From positions 400 through 64,399 of the forward strand of contig JAMCZU010000032.1 in NCBI GenBank assembly GCA_023485405.1: DNA of 64,000 bases, given 5' to 3'. Positions 9,767 to 39,945 of the stretch are shown here, piece by piece. Positions within the stretch are counted from its first letter, which is position 1, and the number at the start of each line of letters is the position of its first letter. The translations under genes were made by a program, and so were the position numbers. A model generated the notes under the pieces. That model was given only the letters and a program-made list of their open reading frames with translations, ran no database searches and was not told where the DNA came from. The DNA comes from Patescibacteria group bacterium (GTDB lineage Bacteria > Patescibacteriota > UBA1384 > UBA12157 > JAENIV01).

Positions 9767-11818
9767 TTAGTCCTTTCTTATTTTTAAAAACTCTTCTTCG
9801 GAAATTATTTTAACACCAAGTTTTTGGGCTTTTTCATATTTCTCACCCGGTTCATTTCCTGATACCACGTATGAAGTTTGATCACTGACTGATTCCGAAA
9901 TCTCTCCACCTAAATCACGCACTATTTTTTTGGCCTCATCTCGTGACAGCGTCTTTAATCCACCAGTAAAAACAAAAGTTAATCCGACGAATTTCTTATC
10001 ACGAATATGCACAAATTTTATTTTTACTCCAAAATTTAAAAGGCGATTAATAAAATCAAGATTATGTTTATCTTGAAAATAATCAAAAATTGATTTAGCT
10101 ACAATCGGCCCAATATCTTGAATCTCCTGCCAGTCTTCTGGTTTTTTATTTTTTAAGGCATTTGAAATTGATTTGAAATTTGAAATTTGAAATTTGAAAT
10201 TCATGGCGTCAGCCATATCGTACGCCGTTTCTTCCCCTACATTTGGAATGCCTAAAGCATAAATAAAGCGCGGCAATTCAATTTCTTTGTGCGCTTGGAT
10301 TGAATCAATAATATTTTGGGCGGATTTTTCTGCAAATCGTTCTAACGGTTCAATATCACCCTTTTTCAGTTCAAACAAATCAGCCGCATCTTTGACGAGC
10401 CCTATTTCCATAAATTTATTTAAAATTTTTGGACCAAGACCCGTAATATCAAAAGCACCACGTGAAACAAAATGCCTGAGCGCCCGAAGTTTTACCGTAA
10501 AACAGTTTTTATTGAGACAACGATAAGCCGCTTTTCCTTTTTCGCGCACGACTTTACCACCACACTGTGGACATTTTTTGGGAAACTTAAATTCTTTTTC
10601 TTTACCCGTGCGCAGTTCTTTAATCACTTTGGCCACTTCCGGGATCACATCACCAGCCTTGTGAACCACGATTGTATCCCCAATTCGAATATCTTTTTTT
10701 CTAATTTCATCTTCATTATGCAAAGTCGCTCGCGAGACTGTAGACCCAGCCACTATTACCGGTTTTAAAATCGCGACCGGCGTCAAAGTGCCCGTGCGAC
10801 CAACTTGAACAATAATATCTTGAACGGTAGTAGTTGCTTCTTCCGGCGCAAATTTATAAGCAATCATCCCGCGAGGCGCTTTGCCCACCACACCCAATTT
10901 TTCTCTTGTCAAATTGTCATTTATTACCGCTACAATACCATCAATTTGATAAGGCAATTTTTCGCGTGATTTTTCAACTTCAATTTTTACTTTTTCTACT
11001 TCGTTTAAATTCTTGCAATAACGATTTTGAGGCAGAGTTTTAAAACCCAAATCTTTCAAAGTTTCGTGGGATTCCTGATGGGTTTTAACCATTTCCACCC
11101 CATTTACGAAATGGGGTAAAAGGTCCCAAGCGATAAAATCAAGTTTTCGTGATGCGGAAATCTTTGGATTTAATTGGCGAATGGAACCAGCCGCGGCGTT
11201 GCGCGGGTTAGCCAAGAGCGGTAAATTTTGCTTTCGATACTGCGCATTCAAACTTTCAAATACTTTAATCGGCATATAAACCTCTCCCCGAATTTCAATA
11301 ATTTTGAGATTTGAGATTTGAGATTTGAGATTTGCGACTGGCAGTCGCAGTGGTATCGCTTCGATAGTCTTTAAATTTTGAGTCACCTCTTCACCAATTT
11401 TACCATCACCACGGGTAGCACCACGCACTAAAACACCATTTTCATAAATTAATGAAACCGCCAGACCATCCATCTTAAGTTCCGCAAAGTAATCAAACTT
11501 TTCATCTAAGATTTTTTTATTTCGCGTTTCCCAATCCTCAAGTTCTTCAAACGAAAAAGCATCGGTTAAAGAAAGCATTGGCTGCGAATGGGTTACTCTT
11601 TGAAATTTTTTTAAAGGCTCACCACCCACTCGCTGAGTGGGTGAATCGAGTGTTAAAAACTCAGGAAATTTATTTTCTAAATCTTGAAGTTCGTGCTTTA
11701 AAGAATCGTTCACTGCATCAGAAACTAAGGATTTATCTAAAACATGATAAGCGTAGCGATACTTCTCAATCAACTCTTTTAATTTTTCGATTCGATTTTT
11801 TGCCTCAACTTTGGTCAT
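9767..11818 (-). CDS. ligA: NAD-dependent DNA ligase
   Basis: adenylation motif KMDGLAVSL, Zn finger CPQCGGKVVREKGKAAYRCLNKNC, HhH and BRCT C-terminus; contains two in-frame heptamer-repeat tracts. Confidence 0.95.
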   Translation of the reverse strand: MTKVEAKNRIEKLKELIEKYRYAYHVLDKSLVSDAVNDSLKHELQDLENKFPEFLTLDSPTQRVGGEPLKKFQRVTHSQPMLSLTDAFSFEELEDWETRNKKILDEKFDYFAELKMDGLAVSLIYENGVLVRGATRGDGKIGEEVTQNLKTIEAIPLRLPVANLKSQISNLKIIEIRGEVYMPIKVFESLNAQYRKQNLPLLANPRNAAAGSIRQLNPKISASRKLDFIAWDLLPHFVNGVEMVKTHQESHETLKDLGFKTLPQNRYCKNLNEVEKVKIEVEKSREKLPYQIDGIVAVINDNLTREKLGVVGKAPRGMIAYKFAPEEATTTVQDIIVQVGRTGTLTPVAILKPVIVAGSTVSRATLHNEDEIRKKDIRIGDTIVVHKAGDVIPEVAKVIKELRTGKEKEFKFPKKCPQCGGKVVREKGKAAYRCLNKNCFTVKLRALRHFVSRGAFDITGLGPKILNKFMEIGLVKDAADLFELKKGDIEPLERFAEKSAQNIIDSIQAHKEIELPRFIYALGIPNVGEETAYDMADAMNFKFQISNFKSISNALKNKKPEDWQEIQDIGPIVAKSIFDYFQDKHNLDFINRLLNFGVKIKFVHIRDKKFVGLTFVFTGGLKTLSRDEAKKIVRDLGGEISESVSDQTSYVVSGNEPGEKYEKAQKLGVKIISEEEFLKIRKD

Positions 11819-11935
11819 AATATAATTATTGATCTTAAACTTAACCTGTTTACACCCATACCAGGTATGAGGGTAAAGGGTTAGATAATTATTCTCTTTC
11901 TTACCTTATTTTACTCTTTTTTCCCTCCTGTTACA

Positions 11936-11971
11936 ACAAAAAACCTCCGCAGAAACGAAGGTTTTTTTTAA
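11936..11971 (-). terminator. rho-independent terminator (A tract-hairpin-T tract, bidirectional) after the pilin gene
   Basis: aacctccg-cagaaa-cgaaggtt flanked by caaaaaa and tttttttt. Confidence 0.5.
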
Positions 11972-11988
11972 AAATTGATTTTAAACTA

Positions 11989-12546
11989 TTAATTTACGCT
12001 ACATATTTGACCACAGTTCTGTGTGTCGCCGCCCATTAATTGATAATTGCCACAAGCACTGTTTACTGCACCAGTTTCAGGTTGTTCCAGATTGGTACCT
12101 AAAATATAGCCATTACCATCATAGGATTGATATACATAACCTAAATCCGATGTTGGACCACCACCCAAATAAGCAGGGTTACCTGTACTTGTATCTTCTT
12201 TATTCGTAGGATCTACTGGTAGAGAAGCCAGATAATTATTACCCACCAAAACATTATAAAGAGTCCTATAGTCACCATTGGCAGTAGGAGGATATGGATT
12301 AGTACCAGTACCCCAATATGTCTTATCCCATGGAGAAAAGAAACATCCCTTCGGATAACTACTATTTTTATAATAGTAACTATCCAAAGCAGTTTGCATT
12401 GTCCGCATATCGGCTTTGCGTTTAGTGTCACGGGCTCTGACTCGGGCACTGGAAACTCCCACGGTGACCACTGCTGCCAAAATACCAATAATTGCTATCA
12501 CTACCAGAAGCTCAATTAATGTAAAACCTTTACGATTTGAGAACAT
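11989..12546 (-). CDS. type IV pilin (prepilin N-terminal methylation motif)
   Basis: KGFTLIELLVVIAIIGILAAVV class-III signal; Cys-rich C-terminal head. Confidence 0.8.
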   Translation of the reverse strand: MFSNRKGFTLIELLVVIAIIGILAAVVTVGVSSARVRARDTKRKADMRTMQTALDSYYYKNSSYPKGCFFSPWDKTYWGTGTNPYPPTANGDYRTLYNVLVGNNYLASLPVDPTNKEDTSTGNPAYLGGGPTSDLGYVYQSYDGNGYILGTNLEQPETGAVNSACGNYQLMGGDTQNCGQICSVN

Positions 12547-12560
12547 TTTTCTCCTAAAAT

Positions 12561-13172
12561 CTACTCTGACCAGAGATATGCACCGGAAGTATAAAGAGAA
12601 ACTGTTTTACTAGTGGGTGCTGCCGGATCATATATCTCACGAATAGAGGTAGAATTACAAGCATCACTTGGGCCAGTACCACAAATGGTTTCCATTTGAA
12701 GATTGGCTTTTAATTTATATTCCTTACCATCACTCGCATACGCATAGCAACCATGAAAATCTAAATCATTTGTATACTGTTGATTATTAGACGCAGGTAC
12801 CCCTTTTGGATCTTGAGGTAAAACTGAAATAAAATCAGGCGCCAAGTTTGGTATCCAACCGGTACTTCCTGAACTTGTAAGACCCGGTGGATTACTTTGG
12901 TTATAAGTTCGACAGAGTCCGCCCCAAGAAACACCAGGCGATAATAATACTCCGCTAACTTTAACACCAACGTTGCCGCTACTTATTGGGTAGCTACCAT
13001 TTTTATCATTATATTGCTCGAGTGCTCCTTGGAGTGACCTTAAATTTGCAATTCTTTTGGCATCACGAGCAGTTTTACGAGAATTGTTAACATTAACAAT
13101 CACGAGCGACGCTAAAAGACCAATAATAAACATCACTACCAAGAGTTCAATTAGAGTAAAACCCTTTTTCAT
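12561..13172 (-). CDS. type IV pilin (prepilin N-terminal methylation motif)
   Basis: MKKGFTLIELLVVMFIIGLLASL. Confidence 0.8.
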   Translation of the reverse strand: MKKGFTLIELLVVMFIIGLLASLVIVNVNNSRKTARDAKRIANLRSLQGALEQYNDKNGSYPISSGNVGVKVSGVLLSPGVSWGGLCRTYNQSNPPGLTSSGSTGWIPNLAPDFISVLPQDPKGVPASNNQQYTNDLDFHGCYAYASDGKEYKLKANLQMETICGTGPSDACNSTSIREIYDPAAPTSKTVSLYTSGAYLWSE

Positions 13173-13223
13173 AAGCCTCCTTTTAATAACTTAATTTAAG
13201 TATAAAAATAATAGTATTATATG

Positions 13224-13352
13224 TCAAATTTCTAAATCCAAATTTCTAATTTCTAATAAAATGTCCAATGATGCAATGTCTAATATCAAAACTTTTGGAC
13301 ATTGAGATTTTGACATTTGGATTTTTATTTGTCATTAGATATTAGGATTTTG
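13224..13352. repeat. AT-rich MITE-like element, copy A (~129 bp)
   Basis: shares the 5' end aaatttcta..ctaaatcc/aaatttctaatttctaataaaatg and the 3' end cattag..attaggattttg with copies at 14267 and 24881; ends are mutually inverted (ctaaatcctaat / attaggattt). Confidence 0.7.
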
Positions 13353-14261
13353 TTATTTACTGATCATCTCTCTTAATCTCTTTATTCTCTCCCCAACCGG
13401 TGGATGAGTGTCAAAAAGCCCGACCAGCCAGCCCCTTTTCTCATCTTTTTTAAAAGGACTTTCAATGTAAAGATGAGCAGTCGCTTTGTTGGCCACCTCT
13501 AGTGGTTCAGGATCTTGGGAAATTTTTTCCAAGGCCGAAGCTAGGCCTTCAGGATAACGAGTCAGTAATGCTCCCGTGGCGTCAGCTAAAAATTCACGCT
13601 TTCGGGAAATGGCTAACTGAATTAGAGTCGCCGCGATTGGCGCTAAAATGGCCATCACAATGGCTACAATAAAAAGAATCAGTTGAATTTGGCCACCACC
13701 GTCACTATCAGACCGGCGCCGACCGCCGCCAAACCATGTCCAGCGAAGAAAAAAATCAGAAAGCAAAGTGACCACTCCTACTAAAACCACCACGATCGTC
13801 ATTAACCTAATATCATAATTGCCCACGTGAGACATTTCATGGGCAATTACTCCTTCTAATTCCGTCTTATTAAGTTTTTCAAGGAGCCCGGAGGTCACCG
13901 CCAATGCCGCATGTTTTGGGTCACGGCCGGTGGCAAAAGCGTTCGGCGCACCGTCTTGGATTAAATAAATTCGTGGCTTGGGGAGCCCTGCCGTAATGCT
14001 TAAATTTTCAACGACGCGATGAAGCTCTAAAAACGGTTCCTTGCGTGGTACTTCTTTTGCCCCCGAAATTGCCAAAGTGATCGAATCAGAATAATAATAA
14101 GAAACCAAGGCTTGAATGGTGGCAAATAAAACGGCGATAACCAAAATCAATTGGTTGTTAAAATACCAAGAAAGCAAGTAACCCAAACCAATTACAAAAA
14201 CAAGAAAGACGAATATTAATAAAACTGTCCTCCTTTTATTCGAGTCTATTTCTTTATACAT
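13353..14261 (-). CDS. htpX: HtpX-family M48 zinc metalloprotease
   Basis: HEMSHV zinc-binding motif, multiple TM segments. Confidence 0.9.
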   Translation of the reverse strand: MYKEIDSNKRRTVLLIFVFLVFVIGLGYLLSWYFNNQLILVIAVLFATIQALVSYYYSDSITLAISGAKEVPRKEPFLELHRVVENLSITAGLPKPRIYLIQDGAPNAFATGRDPKHAALAVTSGLLEKLNKTELEGVIAHEMSHVGNYDIRLMTIVVVLVGVVTLLSDFFLRWTWFGGGRRRSDSDGGGQIQLILFIVAIVMAILAPIAATLIQLAISRKREFLADATGALLTRYPEGLASALEKISQDPEPLEVANKATAHLYIESPFKKDEKRGWLVGLFDTHPPVGERIKRLREMISK

Positions 14262-14266
14262 AATCT

Positions 14267-14392
14267 AAAAATTTCTAAGCCCTAAATCCTAATTTCTAAT
14301 AAAATGCCCAATGACTAAATTTCAAATTTTTGACATTTAATATTTGACATTTGAAATTTTATTAGACATTTGTTATTAGGATTTTGGATTTA
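14267..14392. repeat. AT-rich MITE-like element, copy B (~126 bp)
   Basis: aaatttctaagccctaaatcctaatttctaataaaatg ... ttaggattttggatttag; fills the htpX-lemA intergenic space exactly. Confidence 0.7.
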
Positions 14393-14941: not shown

Positions 14942-14954
14942 AAATGCTCCTTTA

Positions 14955-15662: not shown

Positions 15663-15748
15663 TTTTCCCCTCCCTAAATCCAGTTCTTTCAGAACTGGAT
15701 CGGGCGGCCCGCTTTTAGCGGGCTTAGCCTTTTACATTTATTATTGTA

Positions 15749-17240: not shown

Positions 17241-18371
17241 TTAATTTATTATTCCCCCACCTAAAACTTCTTCTCCTTTGTAAAAAACAATTGATTGACC
17301 GGGTGTAACCGCTCGTTGGGGCTTTTTAAATGTTACCTTAACTTGATTATTGTTTATAATTTTCAGCTTACAATTTTCTGCCGGATGACCGTAACGAATT
17401 TTTGCTTTAATATCGCTATAAGGTTTACTCAACCAATTTAAATCAGTAGCAATTAATTCTTTTTGCATTAAATCTTTCTCATCACCAACAATGAGAGTGT
17501 TCGTCTGACTATCCAATTTTACCACAAAGTAAGCTTTTGGGCCACCTAAACCTAAACGCTCTCGTTGACCAATAGTATAATCAATTAAACCACTATGTTG
17601 ACCTAAAATATTACCCTCAACATCAGTAATCACGCCTGGCTTAGTCAACTTTTTAGTGTGACGTCGTAAAAAAGTACAAATATCTCTGTTGGGGATAAAA
17701 CAAATACCTTGAGATTCTCGTCGCTCGGCTGTCGGCAATCCCCATTTTTTAGCCATTTTTCTAATGTCTGGTTTTGAATAATCACCTACCGGAAAAAGAA
17801 TATGTTTTAAATGTTCTTGCTTTAACATCCAGAGAAAATAAGTCTGATCTTTGGCTTTGTCTACAGCCGTGAGTAGTTTATATTTAACATTAGGATTTTG
17901 ACATTTAGATTTTTGTTTGTCATTTGAAATTTGGATTTTGCCATTTTCACTTCCAATGCGGGCATAATGTCCGGTCGCAAGGTAGTCCGCTTTCATCTCC
18001 AAAGTTTTTTTCAACAGTATTTCTCCTTTAATATCGCGGTTGCAAACCACGCACGGATTTGGCGTTCGACCATTTTCGTGTTCTTTAATATAGTAGTCAA
18101 CGACGCTTTTTTTAAATTCTTCTTCAAAATTGACGACATAAAAAGGAATGTTTAATTTGGCCGCTACGGCGCGCGCCGCCGTTGCCGCCTCCAATGAACA
18201 ACAAACATTTTCTCTCACTAAATCAGTTTGAGAAGTTTCTTCCGACCAAAGTTTCATAAAAATTCCAATTACCTCGTAACCTTGTTTTTGAAGGAGGGCG
18301 GCTGCCACTGACGAATCCACCCCGCCCGACATTGCACAAACCACCGCTTTATTTTTCATATTTTTTACCAT
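17241..18371 (-). CDS. mnmA: tRNA-specific 2-thiouridylase
   Basis: PP-loop AVVCAMSGGVDSSVAA; carries a ~17-aa in-frame insertion encoded by a MITE-like fragment (17890-17942). Confidence 0.9.
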   Translation of the reverse strand: MVKNMKNKAVVCAMSGGVDSSVAAALLQKQGYEVIGIFMKLWSEETSQTDLVRENVCCSLEAATAARAVAAKLNIPFYVVNFEEEFKKSVVDYYIKEHENGRTPNPCVVCNRDIKGEILLKKTLEMKADYLATGHYARIGSENGKIQISNDKQKSKCQNPNVKYKLLTAVDKAKDQTYFLWMLKQEHLKHILFPVGDYSKPDIRKMAKKWGLPTAERRESQGICFIPNRDICTFLRRHTKKLTKPGVITDVEGNILGQHSGLIDYTIGQRERLGLGGPKAYFVVKLDSQTNTLIVGDEKDLMQKELIATDLNWLSKPYSDIKAKIRYGHPAENCKLKIINNNQVKVTFKKPQRAVTPGQSIVFYKGEEVLGGGIIN

Positions 18372-18386: not shown

Positions 18387-18433
18387 TTACATTCCTAAAC
18401 CTGTTGTCCACCTACGAGGTGGACATTTTGGTT
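18387..18433. repeat. REP2 element copy 1: ttacattcctaaacctgttgtccacct-acg-aggtggacattttggtt
   Basis: palindrome tgtccacct/aggtggaca with the same acg loop core as REP1; overlaps the folD 3' end. Confidence 0.75.
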
Positions 18434-20584: not shown

Positions 20585-21783
20585 TTTACTCCTAAAGGAC
20601 TAATTTCCCTTAATCTTTTAATAATTGTTTTTAAATTTGTTATCGTATAATCAATTTCTTCTTTGGTCGTTTTTTCTCCCAAAGTAAAGCGAATTGAGCC
20701 ATGAGAGCGTTCGGCATTATTGTAAGTGGCCATTAAAACATGGGAAGGCTTGAGTGACAACGAAGTGCAAGCCGAACCCGAAGAGGCGGCGATACCAACT
20801 AAGTCTAAACTCAAAAGAATAGATTCACCCTCGACATATTTAAAATAAAAATTGGCATTGTTGGGACTACGAGACTGCCTTGAACCATTAAGCTCAACCT
20901 CGGAGATTTCTTTTAGAACACGATCAATAAAATAATCTCTTAACTTTAATGTTTTTTCGGCTCTTATTTCATATTTCTTATCTCTCAAAACTTCTGTGGC
21001 TTTACCCAAAGCTACAATCCCCGCCACATTTTCCGTCCCCGCACGCAAATTCATCTCTTGTTCACCACCAAAAATAATTTTTCGCAGTGGTACATCCTTT
21101 CGAAAATAAAGCGCGCCAATTCCTTTAGGTGCACCAATTTTATGCCCGGAAATTGTTAAAAGATCAACATGCAAGAAATCAACATTCATTGGCAAATATT
21201 CCGCTGCCTGAACCGCATCGGTATGGAAATAAATTTTGTTTTCTCTTTTCTCGTTTTCTTTCTCAATCATTTTACCAATTTCACGAATAGGTTGGATAAC
21301 ACCAATTTCATTATTAACATATATGACGGAGGCTAAAACTGTATTTTTTTTGACTGCTTTTTTAACTTGTTCTTTTGTAATAAGTCCTTCTTTATTGGGT
21401 TTTAAATAGGTTATTTCGGCCAAATTATTTTTTTCTAAATATTCGCAAGTTCTTAAAATCGCATAATGTTCAATTGCACTAGTGATAATATGTGGTTTAG
21501 AATTTGAAATTTGAAATTTGCCTTTAGCAGACCAATTTGAAATTCCTCGCACAGCAAGATTATCCGCTTCCGTTCCACCAGAGGTAAAAATAATTTCTTC
21601 TGGCTTACTATTTAAAAATTCTGCTACTTGAGTGCGTGCTTTTTCAACCGCTGTTCTAGCAACTTGACCCCAACTATGAATACTTGAAGGATTACCAAAA
21701 TTATTTTCCAAAAAAGGTAAGAGTGCTTTTTTAACCTCATTTTTCACCGGACTGGTAGCTGAATAATCAAGATAAACTTTCAT
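20581..21783 (-). CDS. iscS: cysteine desulfurase (NifS/IscS class V aminotransferase)
   Basis: PLP-Lys motif SGHKIGAPKGIGALY; catalytic Cys in SSGSACTS. Confidence 0.9.
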   Translation of the reverse strand: MKVYLDYSATSPVKNEVKKALLPFLENNFGNPSSIHSWGQVARTAVEKARTQVAEFLNSKPEEIIFTSGGTEADNLAVRGISNWSAKGKFQISNSKPHIITSAIEHYAILRTCEYLEKNNLAEITYLKPNKEGLITKEQVKKAVKKNTVLASVIYVNNEIGVIQPIREIGKMIEKENEKRENKIYFHTDAVQAAEYLPMNVDFLHVDLLTISGHKIGAPKGIGALYFRKDVPLRKIIFGGEQEMNLRAGTENVAGIVALGKATEVLRDKKYEIRAEKTLKLRDYFIDRVLKEISEVELNGSRQSRSPNNANFYFKYVEGESILLSLDLVGIAASSGSACTSLSLKPSHVLMATYNNAERSHGSIRFTLGEKTTKEEIDYTITNLKTIIKRLREISPLGVK

Positions 21784-28503: not shown

Positions 28504-28548
28504 CTATTACAGTATAAATAAAAAAATCCAAAATCCAAAATCCAAATT

Positions 28549-29343
28549 TCAAAATTGATAGTTTTTAAGAACATTACATAACACGAACCATTGTTTTAAA
28601 GTTAGGTCTTCAGCGCGAAGCGATGGATCGATTTGTGCTTTTTTCAAAATATCAGTCACTTTATCTTTTTCCAATCTTAATGTCGCTGCCAAGGAATTTC
28701 GAATCTGTCGTCGCTTGGCCGAAAAACCAGCTTTGACAATTTGAAAAAACAACTTTGACCCAACCTTATCCGCATACCTGGTATGAGGGTATGGTTGGAG
28801 TTTTAAGATGGCGGCGTCAACTTGGGGTTGGGGGCGGAAACTATTTTTGGACACCGTCATAATAATTTCCGCATTGGCATAAAATTCAACCGCCAAGGTT
28901 AAAATACCCCGCTCCGAATCACCAGGCTTAGCAACGATTTTTTCAGCGACTTCTTTTTGCACCATCACTACCATTAATTCCGGTTGATTTTGGCTTTCTA
29001 AAAATTTCCGGATTAATGGCGAGGCAATATTAAAAGGCAAATTTGAAACGACTTTGTACTTTTTAAAAATTGATAAATCAAAAAAGAGAGCATCTTGATG
29101 AACGATAGTTAAATTTTTATTTTTACCCAACGCCTTACGCAGCATTTCTGCTAATTCAAAATCTTTTTCGATGGCATAAACTTTTGCCCCAGCATCTATT
29201 AACGCTTTGGTTAATATTCCCAAACCCGGCCCAATTTCAATAACAACATCATCCTTTTTAATTTCAGCAACCTTAATAATATCAGGAATGATTTTATCAT
29301 TGATTAAAAAATTTTGTCCCAGAAATTTTTTTTGTTTAAACAT
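28549..29343 (-). CDS. rsmA: 16S rRNA dimethyladenosine transferase
   Basis: FLGQNFLINDKII and EIGPGLGILT motifs. Confidence 0.9.
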   Translation of the reverse strand: MFKQKKFLGQNFLINDKIIPDIIKVAEIKKDDVVIEIGPGLGILTKALIDAGAKVYAIEKDFELAEMLRKALGKNKNLTIVHQDALFFDLSIFKKYKVVSNLPFNIASPLIRKFLESQNQPELMVVMVQKEVAEKIVAKPGDSERGILTLAVEFYANAEIIMTVSKNSFRPQPQVDAAILKLQPYPHTRYADKVGSKLFFQIVKAGFSAKRRQIRNSLAATLRLEKDKVTDILKKAQIDPSLRAEDLTLKQWFVLCNVLKNYQF

Positions 29344-31920: not shown

Positions 31921-34887
31921 TTATATTCTTTCCAATAATTCCTCGGAAATTTCGGAAAGAAAACGCGATGGCATATTAGCTTGGATGGAACCATAAAGCA
32001 GGCGCGAACAGGCATAACTAAAATACAGTCTTTTTCGCGCACGGGTAATACCAACATAACAAAGCCGTCGTTCTTCTTCAAGCTCCGCCGGCTCCATGAG
32101 AGAATTGGCATGAGGGAACAAGCCTTCTTCCATTCCCACCATAAAAACAATTGGAAATTCTAAACCCTTGGCGTTATGCAAAGTCATCAATGTGATCGCG
32201 TCAGTCGAACGGTCAAGATTATCAATATCAGAAACTAAAGTAACTTGTTCTAAAAAACTTTCCAGATTTTCGGCCGATGCCGCGACCGATTTTAATTCTT
32301 CAATATTCTCCCACCGTCCTTCCCCTTCTTCGGTGCCATCTAAAATCCAATTTTTATAAGTTGATTTTAGAGCCACTAAATCAATGAGTTCAGAGACTTT
32401 TATTTTTTTTGAAGTTTGACGAAGTTCTTCAATCATTTCTAAAAACTTTAATACTTTTGGATTGTTTTTGTCTATTTGGGATTTCTCGCCAATTCCTCGT
32501 GGGGGGACATTGATAATTCTTTTTTGAGCGACCCGATCGGTTGGATTTAAAATTAATTTCAAATAAGCCAAAATATCCTTAATTTCTCGTCTTTCGTAGA
32601 ATCTTAAAGCGCCAATTAAACGATATGGAATGCCTTTTTGCATCAAGGCTTCTTCAAAAATTCGTGACTGGGCATTAGTTCGATATAAAATCACAAATTG
32701 ATTATAACCGCCTAACATTTTAAGGGCTTCGACTTCGTCAAGAATAAATTCGGCTTCTTCCTTTTCACTTCGTGCTTCAAAAACCGTCGGTGCGATACCA
32801 TCTTCATTGTCAGTCCAAAGTGTTTTTTTACTCCTAACACAATTTTTTTCGATCACACATTGAGCCGAAGCAATAATTTTTTTAGTCGAACGATAATTTT
32901 GTTCCATCTTAATAATTTTCGCCTTAGGATAATCTTTCTCAAAATCTAAAATATTTTTAAAATTAGCACCGCGAAAACCGTAGATGGAGTTGTGAACGAC
33001 AACCCCTTCAGCAATATAATTATGCAAATTTTCAATATCTAGATCGTAAAGAACTTCATTAGTCATCCGACAATTGATACCGATAATTTCGTCTTCAACT
33101 ATTTTGCCGTTGCGAAGAACAGGAATGACCATCCCTGGTCTTAAGTTACTCACCGGCATAAAATCAAAACTCGTTTTACTATCCGTTAGTCGGGCTGATT
33201 TGATAATATCTAAACTATTAATTCCGGCTAATTTTTCAGCCAAAACTAGAGCTTCACTATAATCTTTTCTGGAGGTTTCAATCCGCCAGCTTCTTTTATC
33301 CATTCTAGTTGCGAATCCCATATTTTCAAATTTTTCACGTAATCTAGGATCTGTCGTAGTAATTCTGACTCGATGAGCATGCCAAGGTCTTTGTTGACCA
33401 AGACGATCCTCACCAAACATATTTAAAGTAATAAATTGCCGTCCTTGATATTTTTGCGTAAATTCTAAAGTCACAGCTTGAGGACGATGATGCGGAAAAT
33501 CCCACTTTAGATCTAAATCTTCTAATAAATTTTTGGCTCTTTTTTTGGTATCTATATTTTTAAATAACATGTCAATGTGTTCTTGCCGAATTTGCATAGT
33601 TCTACCTTGATTAAAAAATATAGAAGTTGGTATACCATAATAACTTGAAAAAAAGGCTTCATAATACTTAGCCTCCGAAAGATTCTTACAGATTTTTAAA
33701 ATCCACATTCTATCTGCTTTTTCTTGATTTGCTCGTACCTGTAATCCGTGAGCCGTTTCATGACCTTTTTTCCCATATCTAATACTTTTAGTAAAACCTA
33801 TCCTATATCCTTTATCTCTGCGAAACATTAAATAAACAAAAAAACTATCCTTGATTAGTTTCCATTTAGAGAAGAAAATGTGTTCAGAACTCGCCTCGAT
33901 CATATGTCCACTTTTTGTTTCAATTTGCCAAACTTTTCCTTTAAAATTTCGTTTAAAAACTTTTGATACCTCTGATTTCGTAGTAGTACCGTATCCATTA
34001 GCACAGATAACTTTGTCTTTCGGCTTAATTAATCTTATTTCTTTCTGACCTTCAGAAGTTAGTACTTTAGTCTTGCCAGATAAACATTGAAAATCATCCC
34101 CCACCACACAAATATTTTGATATTTTTTAGCTAAAAGAGTACTAAAACGATATTGCGCAAAATTGGTATCTTGATACTCGTCAATTAAAATATAACGAAA
34201 TTGATCTTGGTAGCGTGCTAAAACTGCCGGAAATTTTTCGAAAAGTTCCACAGTTTTAAAAAGTAAATCATCAAAATCCAGGGCGTTCGCGATTTTTAAA
34301 TCTTTTTGATACTGCTGGTAAATTTTTAAAACAATTTCACCAAAATGACCTTTGGAAAATTTGGCATAATTTTGAGGATTTAGAAGTTCATTTTTAGCTC
34401 CAGAAATATAATTTCTAATCACTCGAGGGTTATATTGTTTTTTATCAATTCCCACAACATCCATCGCATGTTTTACCGCCGATAAAGAATCGTCGCTGTC
34501 ATAAATATTAAAAGAACGAGTGTAATCTAAATTTTGAATATTAAAACGCAAAATCTTGGCGCAGATAGAATGAAACGTCCCTAGCCATGGCAGCTTTGAA
34601 ATTTGAAATTTAGAATTTGAAATTCCGAGTAACTTTGTTACTCGACTGGCCATTTCTTCAGCCGCTTTGTTGGTAAAAGTCACAGCTAAAATATTTTCCG
34701 GATGAATTTTTTTTTCACAAATTAAATAAGCAATTCGATGAGTTAAAGCTTTAGTTTTACCAGAACCTGCCCCTGCTAAAATTAAAACCGGTCCTTCGGT
34801 TGTAATAACCGCTTCTTTTTGTTCGGTGTTTAAATTTTCTAAAATATCTAAATTCATTGCACGACTTATTATACAACAAGATAGCAA
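31921..34887 (-). CDS. uvrD: UvrD/PcrA-family DNA helicase containing an intein; likely true start is the ATG at 34857 (MNLDILENLN)
   Basis: Walker A AGAGSGKT, motif III VVGDDFQ|intein|SIYGFRGA, motifs V/VI (VTLMTLHNAKGLEF, YVGITRAR). Confidence 0.9.
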   Translation of the reverse strand: MLSCCIISRAMNLDILENLNTEQKEAVITTEGPVLILAGAGSGKTKALTHRIAYLICEKKIHPENILAVTFTNKAAEEMASRVTKLLGISNSKFQISKLPWLGTFHSICAKILRFNIQNLDYTRSFNIYDSDDSLSAVKHAMDVVGIDKKQYNPRVIRNYISGAKNELLNPQNYAKFSKGHFGEIVLKIYQQYQKDLKIANALDFDDLLFKTVELFEKFPAVLARYQDQFRYILIDEYQDTNFAQYRFSTLLAKKYQNICVVGDDFQCLSGKTKVLTSEGQKEIRLIKPKDKVICANGYGTTTKSEVSKVFKRNFKGKVWQIETKSGHMIEASSEHIFFSKWKLIKDSFFVYLMFRRDKGYRIGFTKSIRYGKKGHETAHGLQVRANQEKADRMWILKICKNLSEAKYYEAFFSSYYGIPTSIFFNQGRTMQIRQEHIDMLFKNIDTKKRAKNLLEDLDLKWDFPHHRPQAVTLEFTQKYQGRQFITLNMFGEDRLGQQRPWHAHRVRITTTDPRLREKFENMGFATRMDKRSWRIETSRKDYSEALVLAEKLAGINSLDIIKSARLTDSKTSFDFMPVSNLRPGMVIPVLRNGKIVEDEIIGINCRMTNEVLYDLDIENLHNYIAEGVVVHNSIYGFRGANFKNILDFEKDYPKAKIIKMEQNYRSTKKIIASAQCVIEKNCVRSKKTLWTDNEDGIAPTVFEARSEKEEAEFILDEVEALKMLGGYNQFVILYRTNAQSRIFEEALMQKGIPYRLIGALRFYERREIKDILAYLKLILNPTDRVAQKRIINVPPRGIGEKSQIDKNNPKVLKFLEMIEELRQTSKKIKVSELIDLVALKSTYKNWILDGTEEGEGRWENIEELKSVAASAENLESFLEQVTLVSDIDNLDRSTDAITLMTLHNAKGLEFPIVFMVGMEEGLFPHANSLMEPAELEEERRLCYVGITRARKRLYFSYACSRLLYGSIQANMPSRFLSEISEELLERI
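32989..34086 (-). other. intein (366 aa) inserted in UvrD motif III
   Basis: begins CLSGKTKV right after GDDFQ, ends VVHN immediately before SIYGFRGAN; extein junction reconstitutes GDDFQSIYGFRGA. Confidence 0.8.
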
Positions 34888-34920
34888 AAAGGCGTATCAA
34901 ATTGATACGCCTTGTCAAAA
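34886..34920 (-). terminator. hairpin terminator ggcgtatca-aat-tgatacgcc flanked by A and T tracts
   Basis: 9-bp perfect stem; on the minus strand it is followed by cttttt; lies between the GC-rich RNA-like locus and the uvrD start. Confidence 0.45.
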
Positions 34921-34926
34921 AATAGC

Positions 34927-35475
34927 GTCAGGAACGGATAGTTCTTAGTACGGATCGGATCAATCCATTCCCGAGTCCGGGGTTTGCTTGTCTCCCCACG
35001 CTCTGTGCCTGTGTACTCCGGCCGATTCCAGCCTTCCACAGAGTTCGCGTAGCCGGAAGTGGCTGTTAATTTTTGTGCTTTTTTATTTTCTGGTTTTTCG
35101 CGCCTTTTGCGCAGAATATAACCTTCAAGCTTGGCCTTTGCTTGAAGCCAGCCGCCAATTATAGATAGCACGGCCCGACCTATTTTATTGCTTCTGTTTC
35201 AAGACCTTCTTTTTCCTTTCCGTACTAAGGGAAATTTGGGTCTCTAGCTGGTCGGTCTGTTCCCAGCAAACTGATAATATTCTATCATAGATTAGTTACA
35301 ATGTCAAGACTTTTTGGTAAATTAAAAGGCGCGATCGGAATCGGCCCAAATATACTTTAAATTATTGGCCGTCGTCGCGCCTTTATGGTATGGGCAAAGT
35401 AATTGGCTTTGTCCCTACCATAAGCATAAGCTTACAGTAAGAACAGCATAACTCCACCCCTGTTCTTCTCATCGT
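34927..35475 (+). ncRNA. GC-rich ORF-free structured-RNA candidate (possibly RNase P RNA-like; strand and identity uncertain)
   Basis: 10-bp long-range complements cttagtacgg (34945) / ccgtactaag (35221) and cggccgattcc (35018) / ggaatcggcc (35338); gagtccgggg plus downstream acggcccgacc resemble RNase P CR-I/CR-V (a P4 with a bulged nucleotide); gcttgaagccag P15-like; terminal hairpin plus U tract near 35436-35480. Confidence 0.3.
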
Positions 35476-35530
35476 TTTATTTCGATGATTACATTATTAT
35501 ACCGTATTTTAGACCAAAAGTCAATGGTTC

Positions 35531-35578
35531 TTTACATTCCTAAACCTATTGTCCACCTACGAGGTGGACATTTCGGTT
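35531..35578. repeat. REP2 element copy 2: tttacattcctaaacctattgtccacct-acg-aggtggacatttcggtt
   Basis: near-identical to the copy at 18387; abuts the dnaB stop. Confidence 0.75.
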
Positions 35579-38183
35579 ATGTCTCCTTTAGCTTCTTTTC
35601 GATGGTAGCAAACTTCATATATTCTGGTTTCCAGTAAAGTTGAACGTCGCCAGTGGGACCATGACGATGCTTGCGGATTAAAATTTCGGCAATATTTTTC
35701 TTTTCGGAATCTTGTTCATACATCTCGTCACGATAAATAAACATCACCACGTCGGCGTCTTGTTCTATGGAATTATGAACAACAATATCGTTAGCGATAA
35801 AATTATGGTTTTTTGGCACCGTTATATCATAAACTGATTCAACACCAACTTCCTTAATTTCAGCTATTTCATCCCAAAAAATATCCGAATCAGCCAAATC
35901 ACTAAGCACACCATCTCCTAAAACTTGGGCGATACTAGAAAGACGATTTCTAGAAATGCCATTATTATATCGCTGCGTGCCAGAATATGCCCATTGCATT
36001 TCTTGGTGGAATTGTCTCGTTGTCCAACCTAAATCCGTAAATTTTTGCACAATTTTCTGCCAAATATCTTTAGGAATAATATCAACATTAGTGTTTGGCT
36101 CGATTTGCCTTAAATCTTTAATTGCTTTTTTAACAATTTTATCTTTGCGACCAAAAATCCCGATCTCTTCCATAAATTTTAATTGATTTTCCGACCCTGA
36201 AATTACAAGATCAAAGACTGGCAAATACCCCCTCTTTTTATTGATTTTAATTCTTGATTGTATCTCAAAACGAAGCAATAAATGCTGTAAGCTTTTAATT
36301 AGTTTTTCACTTTTAGAAGCATAATGTAATCGCCAAATTCCCGAAGAAAAAGTCAAACCACCATCAGTTGAAAAAAGATGTCTGACAAAAAGAGCCAATT
36401 GCTTTTGAGATAATGTAAAGATAAGCTCAGGAATTTCTTTTTCACCAGAACGTTGGTCAAAAATCCCCAATTCTTCATCGAGCCACTTTACGATGGGATT
36501 TCTCCGACCACGAGCCAATGGCGCTGGTGCAGAAAGGTAAAGATGAAACCAAGTTTTTTGTTTAACTAAACGATTTTTTGTTCCAAATGCTTTTTGAGAC
36601 GCTCGATCAACAATACTAATACTTTCTGGATCAGCATTGGTGTAATGAAGTGGTTGATGTTTAAGATAGCATCCATCACCAATTAAATGAGCAAGTACAA
36701 TAATTTTTTCGTCTGACATTGTCACAATATTTTTAAAATCAATTCGCCGAGGGGTTGCTAACCGATCACCACCCGCTAATTTATCTAATCTCTCCCAGCC
36801 ATTAATAGTCATAAATTGATGATTGGCTGTTGCCTTAATTTTCCGGCCGCTTTTAAAAATAAGTTCAAAAACTTTTTTTCTTCCTGTTGAAAAGACTTTA
36901 TTGGCTATTTCTTTGAGTAATTTACCTTGTCCATCAACTGTTAAAACAGTAAATTCTTTTTGACCAACTAGTTTTTCAATTGGCTGGCAAATGCCTGTTT
37001 TAGCATTAAAAATTAAAGTGTCGCCGGTTAAACAACCACTCTCTCTAAGATCAGCTAACATTGGTTTTTTATCTGGACGGTGCTCCACTGCTCGGGATAG
37101 TTGCGATAAAGCTAATATTGGTACATTTAATTCCCTAGCTAAGGCTTTGAGTGAGCGGGAAATTTCCGAAACTTCTTGGACCCGATTGTCAGAACCCTTC
37201 GTGCTCATCCCCGACATTAATTGCAAATAATCAATCACAATTAAACCAAGATCTTGCTCCATCAAAAGTCGGCGACCTTTAGTTCTAATTTCCATCACAT
37301 TTAAAAAGGGTGAGTCATCAATAAAAATGGGTGTTTCTGAAAGCATCCCCATGGCATAATTTAATTTACCGAAATCTTCATCTTCCAAATTACCGGTACG
37401 TAACTTCCAGGAATCAACTGAACCTCGAAGGCACAAGAGTCGGTCAATAATCTGTTCTTTGGACATTTCCAACGAGAAAATTCCGACCGCTTGTTTATGT
37501 TCACAAGCAACATGATCGGCAATATTTAAAGCAAAAGCCGATTTACCCACCGACGGCCGAGCCGCCAGGATCACTAAATCTGATTTTTGCAAACCAGCCA
37601 GGACATTGTCTAAATCCCGAAAACCAGTCGGCACGCCTCGAATTGCCCCTTTTTCTTTGTGCAACTTGTCAATTCGATCAAAAGAATCAGCTAAAATATC
37701 TTTAATTGGCGTGAAATACTGTTTAACATATTTTTGCGAAACACTAAATAAAGTACTTTCGGCCCGATCTAAAATTGTCTCGAGTTCAGAATTTTCATCA
37801 AAACCAAGCTCGGTGATAGTCGCCGCGGCTGTGACTAAGCGCCTTAAAGTTGCTTTTTGATGAACAATATTAGCATAAGTTGTGATATGAGCAGCGGTTG
37901 GTACCGAATTGACCAAAGTAGCAATGTACGATGCACCACCAATACTTTTCAGTTTCTTATCTTTTTCTAATTCGTTGGTCAAAGTGACCACGTCAATCGG
38001 TTTTCGTTTTTCAAACAGTTTAATAATACAACTATATATAGTAGCGTGATCTTCGCGGTAAAAATCATCCGATCGCAAAATATCAGCCACTTTAATAATG
38101 GCATTTTGATCCAAAAGCACTGAACCTAGAACTGATTGCTCTGCTTCAATATTTTGTGGGGGAACCTTTATGCCGTCGGGCAT
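35577..38183 (-). CDS. dnaB: replicative DNA helicase DnaB containing an intein
   Basis: Walker A ARPSVGKSAF; H4 motif split as KPMLADLRESG|intein|SIEQDADVVMF. Confidence 0.9.
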   Translation of the reverse strand: MPDGIKVPPQNIEAEQSVLGSVLLDQNAIIKVADILRSDDFYREDHATIYSCIIKLFEKRKPIDVVTLTNELEKDKKLKSIGGASYIATLVNSVPTAAHITTYANIVHQKATLRRLVTAAATITELGFDENSELETILDRAESTLFSVSQKYVKQYFTPIKDILADSFDRIDKLHKEKGAIRGVPTGFRDLDNVLAGLQKSDLVILAARPSVGKSAFALNIADHVACEHKQAVGIFSLEMSKEQIIDRLLCLRGSVDSWKLRTGNLEDEDFGKLNYAMGMLSETPIFIDDSPFLNVMEIRTKGRRLLMEQDLGLIVIDYLQLMSGMSTKGSDNRVQEVSEISRSLKALARELNVPILALSQLSRAVEHRPDKKPMLADLRESGCLTGDTLIFNAKTGICQPIEKLVGQKEFTVLTVDGQGKLLKEIANKVFSTGRKKVFELIFKSGRKIKATANHQFMTINGWERLDKLAGGDRLATPRRIDFKNIVTMSDEKIIVLAHLIGDGCYLKHQPLHYTNADPESISIVDRASQKAFGTKNRLVKQKTWFHLYLSAPAPLARGRRNPIVKWLDEELGIFDQRSGEKEIPELIFTLSQKQLALFVRHLFSTDGGLTFSSGIWRLHYASKSEKLIKSLQHLLLRFEIQSRIKINKKRGYLPVFDLVISGSENQLKFMEEIGIFGRKDKIVKKAIKDLRQIEPNTNVDIIPKDIWQKIVQKFTDLGWTTRQFHQEMQWAYSGTQRYNNGISRNRLSSIAQVLGDGVLSDLADSDIFWDEIAEIKEVGVESVYDITVPKNHNFIANDIVVHNSIEQDADVVMFIYRDEMYEQDSEKKNIAEILIRKHRHGPTGDVQLYWKPEYMKFATIEKKLKET
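35772..37034 (-). other. intein (421 aa) with double-motif LAGLIDADG homing endonuclease in the DnaB H4 motif
   Basis: starts CLTGDTLI after RESG, ends IVVHN before SIEQDAD; internal LAHLIGDGCY and FVRHLFSTDGG LAGLIDADG-like motifs. Confidence 0.85.
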
Positions 38184-38337
38184 TCTGCCCTCCTTTGAAT
38201 AAACTTAAAACTCAAAAGTTAAAACTACAACAGAAAGCTCAAACAATTATTATCTTTTTAGCTTTATCATGCAGTTTTCAGTTTTGCACTTTTAGTTTTT
38301 AGTTGCAACATGTGGAAACTGTGGATTATGGGGATAA

Positions 38338-39945
38338 CTATTCTTCAATATCAAAAACTTCCTTGGCGCCGTTTAAGAGTTCTTCTTCACTGTCAGTCGG
38401 TTTTCTAACCACTAACGCAGGGTCAACCACACAGTTAAGTTTATAATTAGTACCCGTATTTTTTTGAATGATGCCTTCAATAATTTGCGTATTGCGCTTG
38501 CCAGAGATCATGTCGGCATGAAATTTAAATTTAAAAGCTAAGGTGATAGTGTCATCTTGGGTTTCGGCTAAAACCGCATCTTTTAAAAGGGCAGATAAAG
38601 AATGATTATGAGCTTTGGCACCTTTAATAATTTCTTGCCAGAGATCTTGATTGAAGTTTTTTTTCTTAGCCTCGGGTCGTCCCTCACTCTCGGGCTCCCT
38701 AACCAACCTATTCCCTCGCTCCGCTCGGTCAACCGCCACTTCGTTCAGGACATCCCCTCGGCTATTAACATTTTTCTCTTCTATTTTTACATTTTCATTC
38801 AGAATTCTGAATTCTGAATTCTGAATTCCCTTTGTAAACTCAAAAACAATCATTTCGAGTGGCAACTGTGGCAAAGAGGCTGATTTAATTTGCGGTAAAG
38901 CTAGAGCGAATTTTTCGATCATTTTCATTAAAAAATTTACTTCAAACATCTCAGCTATTTTTTTTACTTTGTCCTGCTCTTCTTGGGTTAAATCAAAAAG
39001 TTGATCTTCTCCCAATTTCCACAAAGCAATTTTTCGCAAAACCTCAATCAATTTAATGGTAAAATTTTCAAAATCAACACCCTGCAAATGAAGTTTTGAA
39101 ATAAGTTCAAAAGCTAATTTTCGATTTCCCGCGGCGAGTGCTTCGGAAAAATCAAAAACACTTTTATCTTGGGCCAAACCTAAAATTTGTTGAATTTGTT
39201 CGAGGGTAATATTGGAAGCGGCTGTTTTTCTAATTGACGAAATTTGGCCAAACAGAGATAGAGCATCCCTGTACGAGCCAGCTGCCAGTTGTGACAAGAG
39301 GCCAATGGCCTCGTCATCAATCTTAATTCCTTCCACTTGAGCCACCTTTTTAAGTAATTTTTTTAGTTCCTCTAAATCCGCCCGACGAAAATCAAATCTT
39401 TGAACACGAGATAAAATCGTTGGCAAAATCTTTTGCGGTTCAGTGGTCGCCATAATAAAAATGGCATGAATAGGTGGTTCTTCTAAAGTTTTAAGAAGTG
39501 CATTAAAAGCCTCCTTGGTTAACATATGGACTTCGTCAATAATGTAGATCTTATAATTTGATTTGGTCGGCGCAAAACGAATTTTTTCCCGCAAGTCTCT
39601 AATTTCGTCAATGCCTCGATTAGAAGCGGCATCAATTTCAATCAAATCCAATGATTTTCCAAGTGTTATTTCTTTGCAAGTTGAACATTTATTACAAGGC
39701 TCGTATGAATCTTTTGCCAAAACTCTGCCCGTGCAATTTAAAGCTTTAGCCATAATTCGGGCTAGTGTTGTTTTTCCCGAACCCCTCGGTCCCGCAAATA
39801 AATAACCATGCGAAAAATCTCCTGACGAAAGAGCATTGGTCAAGGTTTGAACAATATGTTCCTGCCCCATAATATCAGCAAATTTTTGTGGTCTAAATTT
39901 TCGATAAAAAACCATACACGCTCCCTTAGGTCGCTTAATTTTCAA
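38338..39945 (-). CDS. dnaX: DNA polymerase III subunit gamma/tau; start probably the internal MVFYRKFRPQ Met
   Basis: GPRGSGKTTLARIMAKALNC Walker A; Zn module CNKCSTCKEI; SRVQRF sensor. Confidence 0.9.
   Translation of the reverse strand: MKIKRPKGACMVFYRKFRPQKFADIMGQEHIVQTLTNALSSGDFSHGYLFAGPRGSGKTTLARIMAKALNCTGRVLAKDSYEPCNKCSTCKEITLGKSLDLIEIDAASNRGIDEIRDLREKIRFAPTKSNYKIYIIDEVHMLTKEAFNALLKTLEEPPIHAIFIMATTEPQKILPTILSRVQRFDFRRADLEELKKLLKKVAQVEGIKIDDEAIGLLSQLAAGSYRDALSLFGQISSIRKTAASNITLEQIQQILGLAQDKSVFDFSEALAAGNRKLAFELISKLHLQGVDFENFTIKLIEVLRKIALWKLGEDQLFDLTQEEQDKVKKIAEMFEVNFLMKMIEKFALALPQIKSASLPQLPLEMIVFEFTKGIQNSEFRILNENVKIEEKNVNSRGDVLNEVAVDRAERGNRLVREPESEGRPEAKKKNFNQDLWQEIIKGAKAHNHSLSALLKDAVLAETQDDTITLAFKFKFHADMISGKRNTQIIEGIIQKNTGTNYKLNCVVDPALVVRKPTDSEEELLNGAKEVFDIEE

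Follow-up and report, generated by a model that had tools for sequence, protein, structure and literature searches.

The 64,000-nucleotide stretch analysed here (referred to as the window; contig JAMCZU010000032.1 of GenBank assembly GCA_023485405.1) has a G+C content of 36% and encodes a number of housekeeping proteins whose genes were identified with NCBIfam and Pfam, amongst them gatB, gatA, ligA, htpX, mnmA, a nifS/iscS-like cysteine desulfurase gene, pcrA, dnaB and dnaX. Its LigA is 100% identical to a protein of an NCBI metagenome-assembled genome (MAG) named 'Patescibacteria group bacterium', and the nearest LigA relatives, some of them named Berkelbacteria, share 66-75% identity; the genome is a Berkelbacteria-like member of the Candidate Phyla Radiation (CPR). 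Six of the genes (gatB, gatA, ligA, the nifS/iscS-like gene, pcrA and dnaX), every one of them on the minus strand, contain short tandem arrays of 7-nt units within their coding sequence, to which an initial annotation made from the letters alone had drawn attention. Using Tandem Repeats Finder (TRF) together with our own exact-repeat scan and a codon-by-codon view, we recovered all the arrays it had listed, exactly or to within a few bases, while a hairpin scan located the palindromes it had reported behind the second ligA array and the pcrA array. The density is about one array per 7 kb, and 6-7 of roughly 50 genes are affected, core genes of replication and translation amongst them. The coding arrays and the hairpins next to them are the following:

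6391-6426, minus strand: gatB-2, degenerate array, GAAATAA-type, peptide EIRNEKWEIG (TRF at 6400-6426, period 7; codon view)
6426-6449, unstranded: perfect 24-nt palindrome, arms TGCGACGCTAAT and ATTAGCGTCGCA, encoding conserved CDANISVA and abutting the gatB-2 array (hairpin scan)
6676-6708, minus strand: gatB-1, GAAATAA x4.7 with one mismatch (TRF, own scan, codon view)
7944-7975, minus strand: gatA-1, AATTAAG/AATTCAG x4.6, peptide EIKNSELRIKN (TRF, own scan, codon view)
8200-8238, minus strand: gatA-2, unit GAAATAA, peptide EEIRNKKIEIRD (TRF, own scan, codon view)
10160-10216, minus strand: ligA-1, array at 10160-10201, AATTTCA x4.4 perfect over 10171-10201, peptide NFKFQISNFK (TRF, own scan, lag identity)
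10203-10216: weak hairpin ATGGC-TGAC-GCCAT at ligA-1
11303-11334, minus strand: ligA-2, CAAATCT x4.6 perfect, peptide NLKSQISNLK (TRF, own scan)
11333-11349: palindrome TGCGACTGGCAGTCGCA, composed of TGCGACTG-G-CAGTCGCA and abutting the ligA-2 array (hairpin scan)
21496-21546, minus strand: nifS/iscS-like gene, array at 21496-21520, CAAATTT x2.9 plus variant AAATTCT, with a remnant GGAATTTCAAATTGG at 21532-21546 (TRF, own scan)
34594-34625, minus strand: pcrA/uvrD, AATTTCA plus variant AATTCTA, peptide GISNSKFQISK (TRF, codon view)
34626-34644: palindrome CGAGTAACTTTGTTACTCG, composed of CGAGTAAC-TTT-GTTACTCG and abutting the pcrA array (hairpin scan)
38797-38828, minus strand: dnaX, GAATTCA x4.6, peptide GIQNSEFRILN (TRF, own scan, codon view)

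Even the degenerate gatB-2 array has a lag-7 identity of 0.64 versus 0.38-0.48 at neighbouring lags.

In comparison to dinucleotide shuffles of the window, exact period-7 runs of at least 2.5 copies are found 10 times versus 0.3 times expected. Period 6 gives 3 such runs versus 0.5 expected and none at three copies or above, and for periods 4, 5 and 8-15 the same comparison shows no excess. Within coding DNA, the 7 period-7 arrays observed compare to 0.10 after codon shuffling, 0.03 after local shuffling in 20-codon blocks and 0.67 after synonymous shuffling with the protein held fixed, and no coding array of period 5, 6, 8, 9, 10 or 12 occurs in the window. The scan was also run on 789 kb of loci fetched from relatives (those referred to individually carry the labels L001, L022, L024-L029, L053 and L063-L065), which contain 38 period-7 arrays versus 0-7 for any other period. 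These arrays are concentrated in Berkelbacteria-like genomes and in one MAG labelled Bdellovibrionales (L022), while most non-Berkelbacteria CPR loci of similar G+C lack period-7 arrays.

What repeats is the DNA and not the peptide, because the periodicity survives the synonymous shuffle and because orthologous sites carry arrays of different units, in agreement with the mutational process at the DNA level that had been suggested at the outset. A heptad repeat at the level of the peptide was considered and is ruled out by the shuffle controls. Period 7 alone is enriched, within genes as well as outside them, and periods 6, 9 and 12 would be better tolerated in genes and yet are not enriched; the bias is therefore mutational rather than made by selection.

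Reading frame, loop length and array size

Since 3 and 7 share no factor, each frame of a period-7 array gives one and the same cyclic heptapeptide, which is set by unit and strand alone; the recurrence of a word 'in the same frame', remarked upon in the initial annotation, consequently carries no information. An array of this period is either free of stops in all frames or contains one stop per 21 nt. The gatB and gatA units GAAATAA and GAATTAA include a cyclic TAA, and single mismatches are located exactly at that codon, while the arrays that are perfect over 31-32 nt are built from stop-free units. Selection has visibly edited a repeat that exists at the level of the DNA.

Alignment to solved structures places the arrays in variable loops of the host proteins. 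Net length differs by +10 aa at ligA-1 and +6 aa at ligA-2 relative to E. coli LigA, by +5 aa at gatA-1 and -4 aa at gatA-2 relative to Aquifex GatA, by 0 at gatB-1 and +2 aa at gatB-2 relative to Aquifex GatB, by +7 aa for the nifS array relative to solved cysteine desulfurases and by +6 aa for the pcrA array relative to PcrA 2pjr. The net insertions claimed earlier are therefore found in ligA, gatA-1, nifS and pcrA but not in gatA-2. While a part of the arrays has thus been added to the protein, others take the place of a loop whose length is ordinary. Arrays that bring no net length change relative to these distant orthologs fit conversion or turnover, not simple insertion.

The coding arrays of the Berkelbacteria-like loci have a narrow size mode, with 12 of 24 measuring 31-32 nt and none exceeding 34 nt. 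Perfect arrays consist of 4.4-4.6 units, in which an A-rich core followed by three variable bases is repeated four times and closed by a further core; shorter coding arrays are interrupted by mismatches, and the few intergenic arrays in these loci span 24-30 nt. According to the initial annotation, arrays are tolerated only where the number of units restores the frame. This rule does not hold in its original form, as the perfect arrays are not whole multiples of three units and the net differences (+10, +7, +6, +6, +5, +2, 0 and -4 aa) follow no simple multiple-of-7-aa rule.

The corresponding loops in relatives

In the relatives whose loci were fetched as DNA (L001, L024-L029, L063-L065), arrays occupy the same loop sites but are made of other units, in genomes whose LigA is 64-75% identical to that of the window, and such turnover is seen at ligA-1, ligA-2, gatA-1, gatA-2, gatB-1 and gatB-2. 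At ligA-1 the unit is AATTTCA in the window, AAATTCG in L024 and L025 and AAATCCG in L027, and a further unit, AATCAAA, was deduced from the peptide NQKSKIKNQN. At gatA-1 the window has AATTAAG, L027 has AACTCAA x4.6 and L026 has ATCAAAG, while the gatA-2 site holds five unrelated array sequences of near-constant length, with L024, L027 and L063 among the carriers. The gatB-1 array of the window is shared with L001, interruption included. In mnmA of L024, a clear array of TCAAAAT x3.7 follows directly on the conserved GHYARI motif, at a position similar to that of the window mnmA loop. All host open reading frames (ORFs) are intact in every genome examined. What had been taken for a process specific to one genome thus affects the same loop sites in numerous genomes of the Berkelbacteria-like kind, and in a small number of further lineages as well.

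At the ligA-1 site, LigA proteins fall into two length classes of 29 and 39 residues, the longer of which (class B) contains a 10-aa segment and comprises 27 of the 67 sequences. Residue 2 of this segment equals residue 9 in 18 of 26 cases, with six residue types represented, versus 5.7 cases expected from shuffling; the test is inflated by kinship of the sequences, although several residue types still show concerted change. The units within an array therefore change together. Amongst these genomes, ligA has reached saturation at third codon positions (37-52% identity) and many arrays are still perfect, which means that the arrays are either renewed or constrained. The ligA-2 loop contains compound arrays in L001 and L024-L028. 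In L026, L027 and L028 these have a common 3' compound stretch, while a different variant unit is amplified on the 5' side in each, and this pattern is the clearest sign of amplification in situ.

Palindromes, small inserts and other features of the window

Perfect palindromes abut arrays in four cases, as compared to 0.29 expected (P=2e-4), and two further palindromes adjoin arrays seen by TRF alone, in gatB (6426-6449, with a 12-bp stem) and in pcrA (34626-34644). The gatB palindrome is the sole 12-bp perfect stem that the hairpin scan found within any listed ORF; the gatB ortholog of L001 keeps the CDANISVA peptide and lacks the palindrome. Each array-abutting palindrome has a unique sequence, with one arm that is native and encodes conserved residues and another that is its inverted copy, as in CDAN/ISVA in gatB, the extra PVA in ligA-2 and PRM-EIRG in L001. 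A third variable LigA loop contains three different perfect palindromes, in the window (11097-11117, listed below), in L025 (7517-7539) and in L028 (3574-3602). Template-switch correction of quasi-palindromes is known from E. coli genetics, and different palindromes at one loop are the outcome that would be expected if such 'correction' took place repeatedly. Interpretation of hairpin plus array as an intrinsic terminator was discarded, since on the strand that has the hairpin ahead of the array, the array is rich in A.

The initial annotation had also considered mini-inserts, and such elements were indeed found in the form of GC-rich palindromic inserts of 21 nt and 30 nt. The 21-nt family CCTGCCTYGCCGGCRGGCRGG is represented in the window (7479-7499), L026 (17094-17114), L027 (4983-5003), L028 (3162-3182) and L053 (388-408). 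Its members are in frame in either orientation and add about seven residues, for example LPAGKAG, with insertions into ligA of L028 (PASPAGG) and, in opposite orientation, into gatA of L026. The window copy is absent from the orthologs in L001 and L027. In L027 the element lies in the middle of the ligA-1 array without target duplication, and its removal restores a perfect 31-nt array. L063 carries a 60-nt insert between two ligA-1 heptamer units (about 11627-11686), again without target duplication, which is made up of two tandem 30-nt GC-rich units encoding PTSPRLRGAG/PTSLKLSGAG. The site is empty in L064 (at 4740/4741), whose ligA is 95.7% identical to that of L063, so that the insert is a presence/absence polymorphism. 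As inserts within this one 10-residue segment are found in 6 of the 27 class-B LigA proteins, the arrays act as landing pads for tiny palindromic mobile inserts. A model in which the arrays themselves are built by an element that repeatedly inserts, with a 7-bp duplication, and is excised again was rejected, since no duplication accompanies the nested inserts and the empty site shows no alteration. A PcrA fragment of another Patescibacteria MAG (P0176) carries a similar peptide, PSRQGG, in the loop that holds the array in the window pcrA.

The ORF at 2701-3378 on the minus strand matches the Pfam family Y1_Tnp (IS200-like/RAYT-like). On either side of it lies an inverted hairpin (2669-2695 and 3413-3445) with the core CACCT-nnn-AGGTG, and three extra copies of the hairpin follow other genes (4142-4164, 18405-18425 and 35550-35570). 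L027 has the same 'REPtron' layout, with Y1_Tnp at 12048-12725 and hairpins at 11984-12008 and 12729-12761.

Further repeat features of the window are:

7479-7499, minus strand: 21-nt GC-rich palindromic mini-insert CCTGCCTCGCGGCAAGGCGGG, adding PASRQGG in frame to a conserved hypothetical protein (2 matches versus 0 expected)
11097-11117, unstranded: perfect 21-nt palindrome ACCCCATTT-ACG-AAATGGGGT in the third variable LigA loop, peptide PHFVNGV (hairpin scan)
13227-13257, minus strand: intergenic heptamer-like array, TTAGAAA-type, upstream of a gene, with similar sequence at 14280-14310 (TRF)
14325-14359, minus strand: intergenic array, AAATGTC-type, upstream of htpX (TRF)
17883-17939, minus strand: mnmA loop with weak degenerate heptamer-like units (lag-7 identity 0.56 versus lag-6 identity 0.55)
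28523-28555, unstranded: array of AAAATCC x3.4-4.7 in the intergenic DNA directly upstream of an NRAMP-like gene (TRF, own scan)
38201-38226 and 38272-38304, unstranded: two imperfect intergenic period-7 arrays between dnaB and dnaX (TRF)
39935-40023, unstranded: AT-rich compound repeat with periods 6, 7, 14 and 26 in the divergent intergenic region beside dnaX, containing the word AAATTTCAAATT (TRF)

The mnmA segment, which had been named amongst the array hosts, is only weakly periodic and at most a candidate array. The minus-strand stretches 13195-13260 and 14280-14345 are alike over about 45 nt (cattgg[ag]cattttattagaaattag...ttagaaattt, with heptamer-like TTAGRRN units) and may be two copies of one promoter or leader element. 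The AT-rich repeat at 39935-40023 and DnaA-box-like nonamers (an adjacent pair at 38320-38337 with one mismatch each, and an exact one at 40071-40079) adjoin a divergence of gene orientation and a change in the sign of the GC skew; because the DnaA-box count across the window does not exceed chance (15 versus 18 expected), a replication origin near dnaX is only a possibility. Apparent inteins are found in pcrA (ORF 31921-34887, Pfam Intein_splicing match over aa 303-633) and in dnaB (ORF 35577-38183, intein-model matches over about aa 381-820). The ORF at 40116-41990 combines an N-terminal HU-like domain (Bac_DNA_binding, aa 1-90) with a type II/IV secretion ATPase (T2SSE); either the fusion is genuine or the mechanical ORF call, which uses a TTG start, has run two genes together. 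At 50426-53600, a pheS-like ORF is limited to the catalytic core (240 aa), and the 2.4 kb or so that come after it contain no ORF of at least 150 aa, no Rfam family and no tRNA; Rfam and tRNA scans gave no match anywhere in the window. A homolog search with the PcrA N-terminus returned no close pcrA orthologs and mostly fragments of other CPR lineages, and amongst genome and metagenome contigs searched for same-species variants no match was closer than 73% identity.

Origin of the arrays and known repeat systems

We consider it on balance probable that the arrays are lineage-specific heptanucleotide microsatellites, kept by slippage or template switching together with exchange between loci. 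A DNA-level process with an intrinsic 7-nt register in the Berkelbacteria-like CPR clade would make short arrays and keep homogenising them, most likely through polymerase slippage or template switching between A-rich microhomologies 7 nt apart; the arrays have the form (AAAT+NNN)x4 plus a closing core. Occasional copying between array loci would spread the favoured units of a genome. In genes, selection would keep only stop-free orientations, frame-preserving changes and tolerant surface-loop positions. Such a filter would account for the A-rich units on the coding strand, for the mismatches where a TAA would otherwise arise and for loop lengths that stay constant. It might also account for the 31-32 nt mode, if a seed of 10-11 nt (one unit plus the core) were extended by 21 nt, that is in a step of three units; this is the only form in which the earlier frame rule could survive. 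The same tendency to template switching would turn neighbouring quasi-palindromes into perfect palindromes, and the arrays are also preferred landing sites of the very small GC-rich palindromic mobile inserts (21, 30 nt). The initial annotation, with its lineage-specific repeat process at the DNA level, filtered by selection and accompanied by mini-inserts, is partly supported, right in spirit and wrong in detail.

The exchange between loci is seen on comparison of the arrays amongst each other. Pairs of arrays with identical units account for 6 of 54 pairs within a genome versus 9 of 576 between genomes (permutation P=0.002). In L027, the gatA-1 and gatB-2 arrays are identical perfect 32-mers, and ligA-2 and gatA-2 have about 50 nt in common, irregular parts included. 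In the window, the nifS and pcrA arrays share a 16-mer that contains the same variant unit, gatB-1 and gatA-2 share the 18-mer GAAATAAGAAATAAGAAA, and the word AAATTTCAAATT, which had been assigned to four genes, occurs in three (ligA, nifS and pcrA) and at two intergenic sites. Because identical units and irregular stretches recur in different genes of one genome, sequence moves between arrays, by ectopic conversion or another copying process.

A number of observations weigh against a microsatellite origin. The repeat-number polymorphism that would be anticipated did not appear: the unit number of coding arrays is unchanged between L024 and L065 (99.4% identity over 13.9 kb, three arrays) and between L063 and L064 (95.4% identity, two arrays), although homopolymers and a 9-nt repeat did vary between the strains, and slippage is therefore slow at best and never directly observed. 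A single slip of 7 nt would cause a frameshift, and the hypothetical +21 step would need reiterated slippage. The ligA-1 insertion is +10 aa, not +7, in 27 of 27 carriers, a constancy that does not fit the idea of seed plus 21 nt, and a microsatellite origin does not by itself account for the 7-nt register. The tight size mode and the irregular sequence shared between genes fit a fixed-size cassette equally well. Finally, the Berkelbacteria-like sequence covered amounts to only about 170 kb, all of it around ligA. With regard to the 9-nt repeats, L024 (about 9059-9130) has four copies of the intergenic CCTCTATAA where L065 (about 8642-8700) has three, and a 9-nt duplication TTAGGAATG likewise differs in copy number between the two, with heptamer arrays unchanged.

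It is possible, though we think it unlikely, that the arrays are mobile or convertible cassettes of about 30 nt which are copied by a dedicated activity, the Y1/HUH transposase of the window or an RNA-mediated one, without slippage in situ. The size mode of 31-32 nt, the identical 32-nt arrays and the 50-nt irregular composite of L027, the variant-containing words common to nifS/pcrA and gatB/gatA, the preferential sharing of units within genomes and the fixed unit number between strains would all be accounted for in this way, and Y1_Tnp genes are nearby in the window and in L027. However, unlike the GC-rich inserts, the arrays themselves revealed neither defined termini nor target duplications nor empty/filled pairs, and hairpins, on which Y1 transposases act, are not formed by the arrays. 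In some arrays, loop sequence is replaced without a change in length, many different units coexist in one genome, and the compound ligA-2 arrays show local amplification of different variant units on a common backbone. A more far-reaching version, to which we assign a rather low probability, holds that a dedicated 'writing' or conversion activity (for example HUH/Y1-linked or RNA-templated) installs cassettes of about four units (31-32 nt) and renews them with genome-specific units, as landing pads for ultra-small palindromic elements. If this were true, such cassette-writing machinery could underlie the heptamer and SDR systems of cyanobacteria, Xanthomonas and Beggiatoaceae as well.

Still less probable is that the periodic sequence is kept by selection for a function of its own, be it a periodic binding site on mRNA or DNA (for example of cold-shock or S1-type proteins, each domain of which binds about 7 nt), a pause in translation or a useful loop peptide with a period of 7 residues. 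The arrays persist and stay perfect at the same sites across genomes with saturated synonymous sites, and they also occur just upstream of genes. A role of this kind has been proposed for intergenic TAACTGA repeats, together with a report of heptamer repeats being bound by CspB (MacGregor 2015, PMC4679880). On the other hand, unit sequence is not conserved at a given site, the host proteins and their loops are mutually unrelated, the array is absent from 40 of 67 orthologs at ligA-1, inserts of 21-60 nt are tolerated in mid-array, and older arrays decay, as gatB-1 does in the window and L001 and as is seen in L063/L064. Chance composition, as a by-product of loops rich in K, E, I and N and hence in A-rich codons in a genome of 36% G+C, or an assembly artefact, is hardly credible and refuted by the shuffle controls (0.03-0.67 arrays versus 7-10 observed, with period 7 alone standing out), by the lack of arrays in most loci of similar G+C from other CPR lineages and by the occurrence of arrays at the same sites in independent assemblies from NCBI, JGI, ENA and Logan.

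The locus further illustrates that essential enzymes of reduced genomes tolerate repeated rewriting of their surface loops, and that tiny palindromic mobile inserts enter genes by way of the arrays. The perfect palindromes beside arrays point to a replication or repair system prone to template switching in this clade. The array segments will mislead alignments, phylogenies and structure predictions of CPR proteins. Orthologous sites across dozens of genomes make both the period of 7 and the formation of arrays testable, through comparative genomics and population data at the level of reads.

Precedents exist for heptanucleotide repeats, for heptamers that contain nested mini-elements and for palindromes within genes, while dense, in-frame arrays that are conserved in position and shift their units in essential genes of a CPR clade were not found in the literature searched, nor was any paper on heptamer arrays in CPR genes. 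Amongst long simple sequence repeats (SSRs), heptanucleotides are reported to be the most abundant class in most prokaryote genomes, for which polymerase slippage has been proposed (Mrazek, Guo and Shah 2007, as summarised in PMC4679880 and PMC4692102); the same two papers relate that units which are not multiples of three are expected to be scarce in genes and that the best-studied cases are over-represented in non-coding DNA. The arrays described here agree with this class in their head-to-tail 7-nt units and in the excess of period 7 over other long periods, and a slippage-type origin is proposed for both. They differ in that they lie in frame within core housekeeping genes and keep to conserved loop sites, with A/T-rich units that turn over between genomes and a narrow mode of 31-32 nt.

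Arrays of about four units are reported to be preferred by the GGGNATC repeats of Xanthomonas and Nostoc (Rehm et al. 2015, PMC4692102). A few arrays of the TAACTGA repeats of Beggiatoaceae and cyanobacteria lie inside ORFs, where they encode the 7-aa periodic peptide LSVISYQ (MacGregor 2015, PMC4679880). Both resemble the window in that genome-favoured heptamer units form many short arrays. They have, however, one dominant unit per genome and are over-represented between genes, where they have been read as G-quadruplex or translational signals, and the cases within ORFs mostly concern hypothetical proteins or protein ends, whereas the window has several units per genome, A/T-rich and unable to form G-quadruplexes, in internal loops of conserved enzymes.

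Intragenic REP-like palindromes have been described in frame, in loops and often in replication and repair genes, with REPs tied to Y1 'RAYT' transposases (Di Nocera et al. 2013, PMC3733652), and Rickettsia palindromic elements (RPEs) are in-frame palindromic inserts in functional genes (Ogata et al. 2000, as cited in PMC3733652). The GC-rich inserts of 21 and 30 nt match these systems, as does the Y1_Tnp gene with a hairpin on either side, and the Y1 (HUH) gene between inverted hairpin copies that recur elsewhere corresponds to the REP/RAYT arrangement, which concerns the transposase locus and not the heptamer arrays. The hairpins of the window, however, do not show a GTAG/CGTC end tag in its canonical form, GTAG/CTAC being located at their apex (CACCT-CGTAG-GTG) and not at an end, and REPs and RPEs are palindromes rather than tandem heptamers. 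RPEs, at about 100-150 bp, are much longer than the inserts here (21, 30 or 60 nt), and the arrays consist of direct repeats.

Contingency loci are slippage-prone coding SSRs in surface or restriction-modification genes of host-adapted pathogens that switch these genes on and off by frameshift and vary between close strains. With the arrays they have in common the short tandem repeats within coding sequence and slippage as presumed generator, but the arrays are frame-intact, reside in essential hosts and show no variation in unit number at 95-99% identity, and are therefore not hypermutable contingency loci.

The tandem heptamers of cyanobacteria (Nostoc), termed STRR, reportedly host nested hairpin-forming mobile elements of 21-27 nt, termed small dispersed repeats or SDR (Elhai et al. 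2008, Genome Res 18:1484). The differences are that the window belongs to the CPR and not to the Nostocales, that units and element sequences are others and that both kinds of sequence lie in frame in essential genes. In both, tandem heptamers accommodate very small hairpin-forming elements, and it is the GC-rich inserts and not the heptamer arrays that would correspond to SDR: here too a hairpin-capable family of about 21 nt, together with the 30-nt units, is embedded in heptamer arrays without target duplication, with presence/absence differences between genomes and one insert that is polymorphic between strains.

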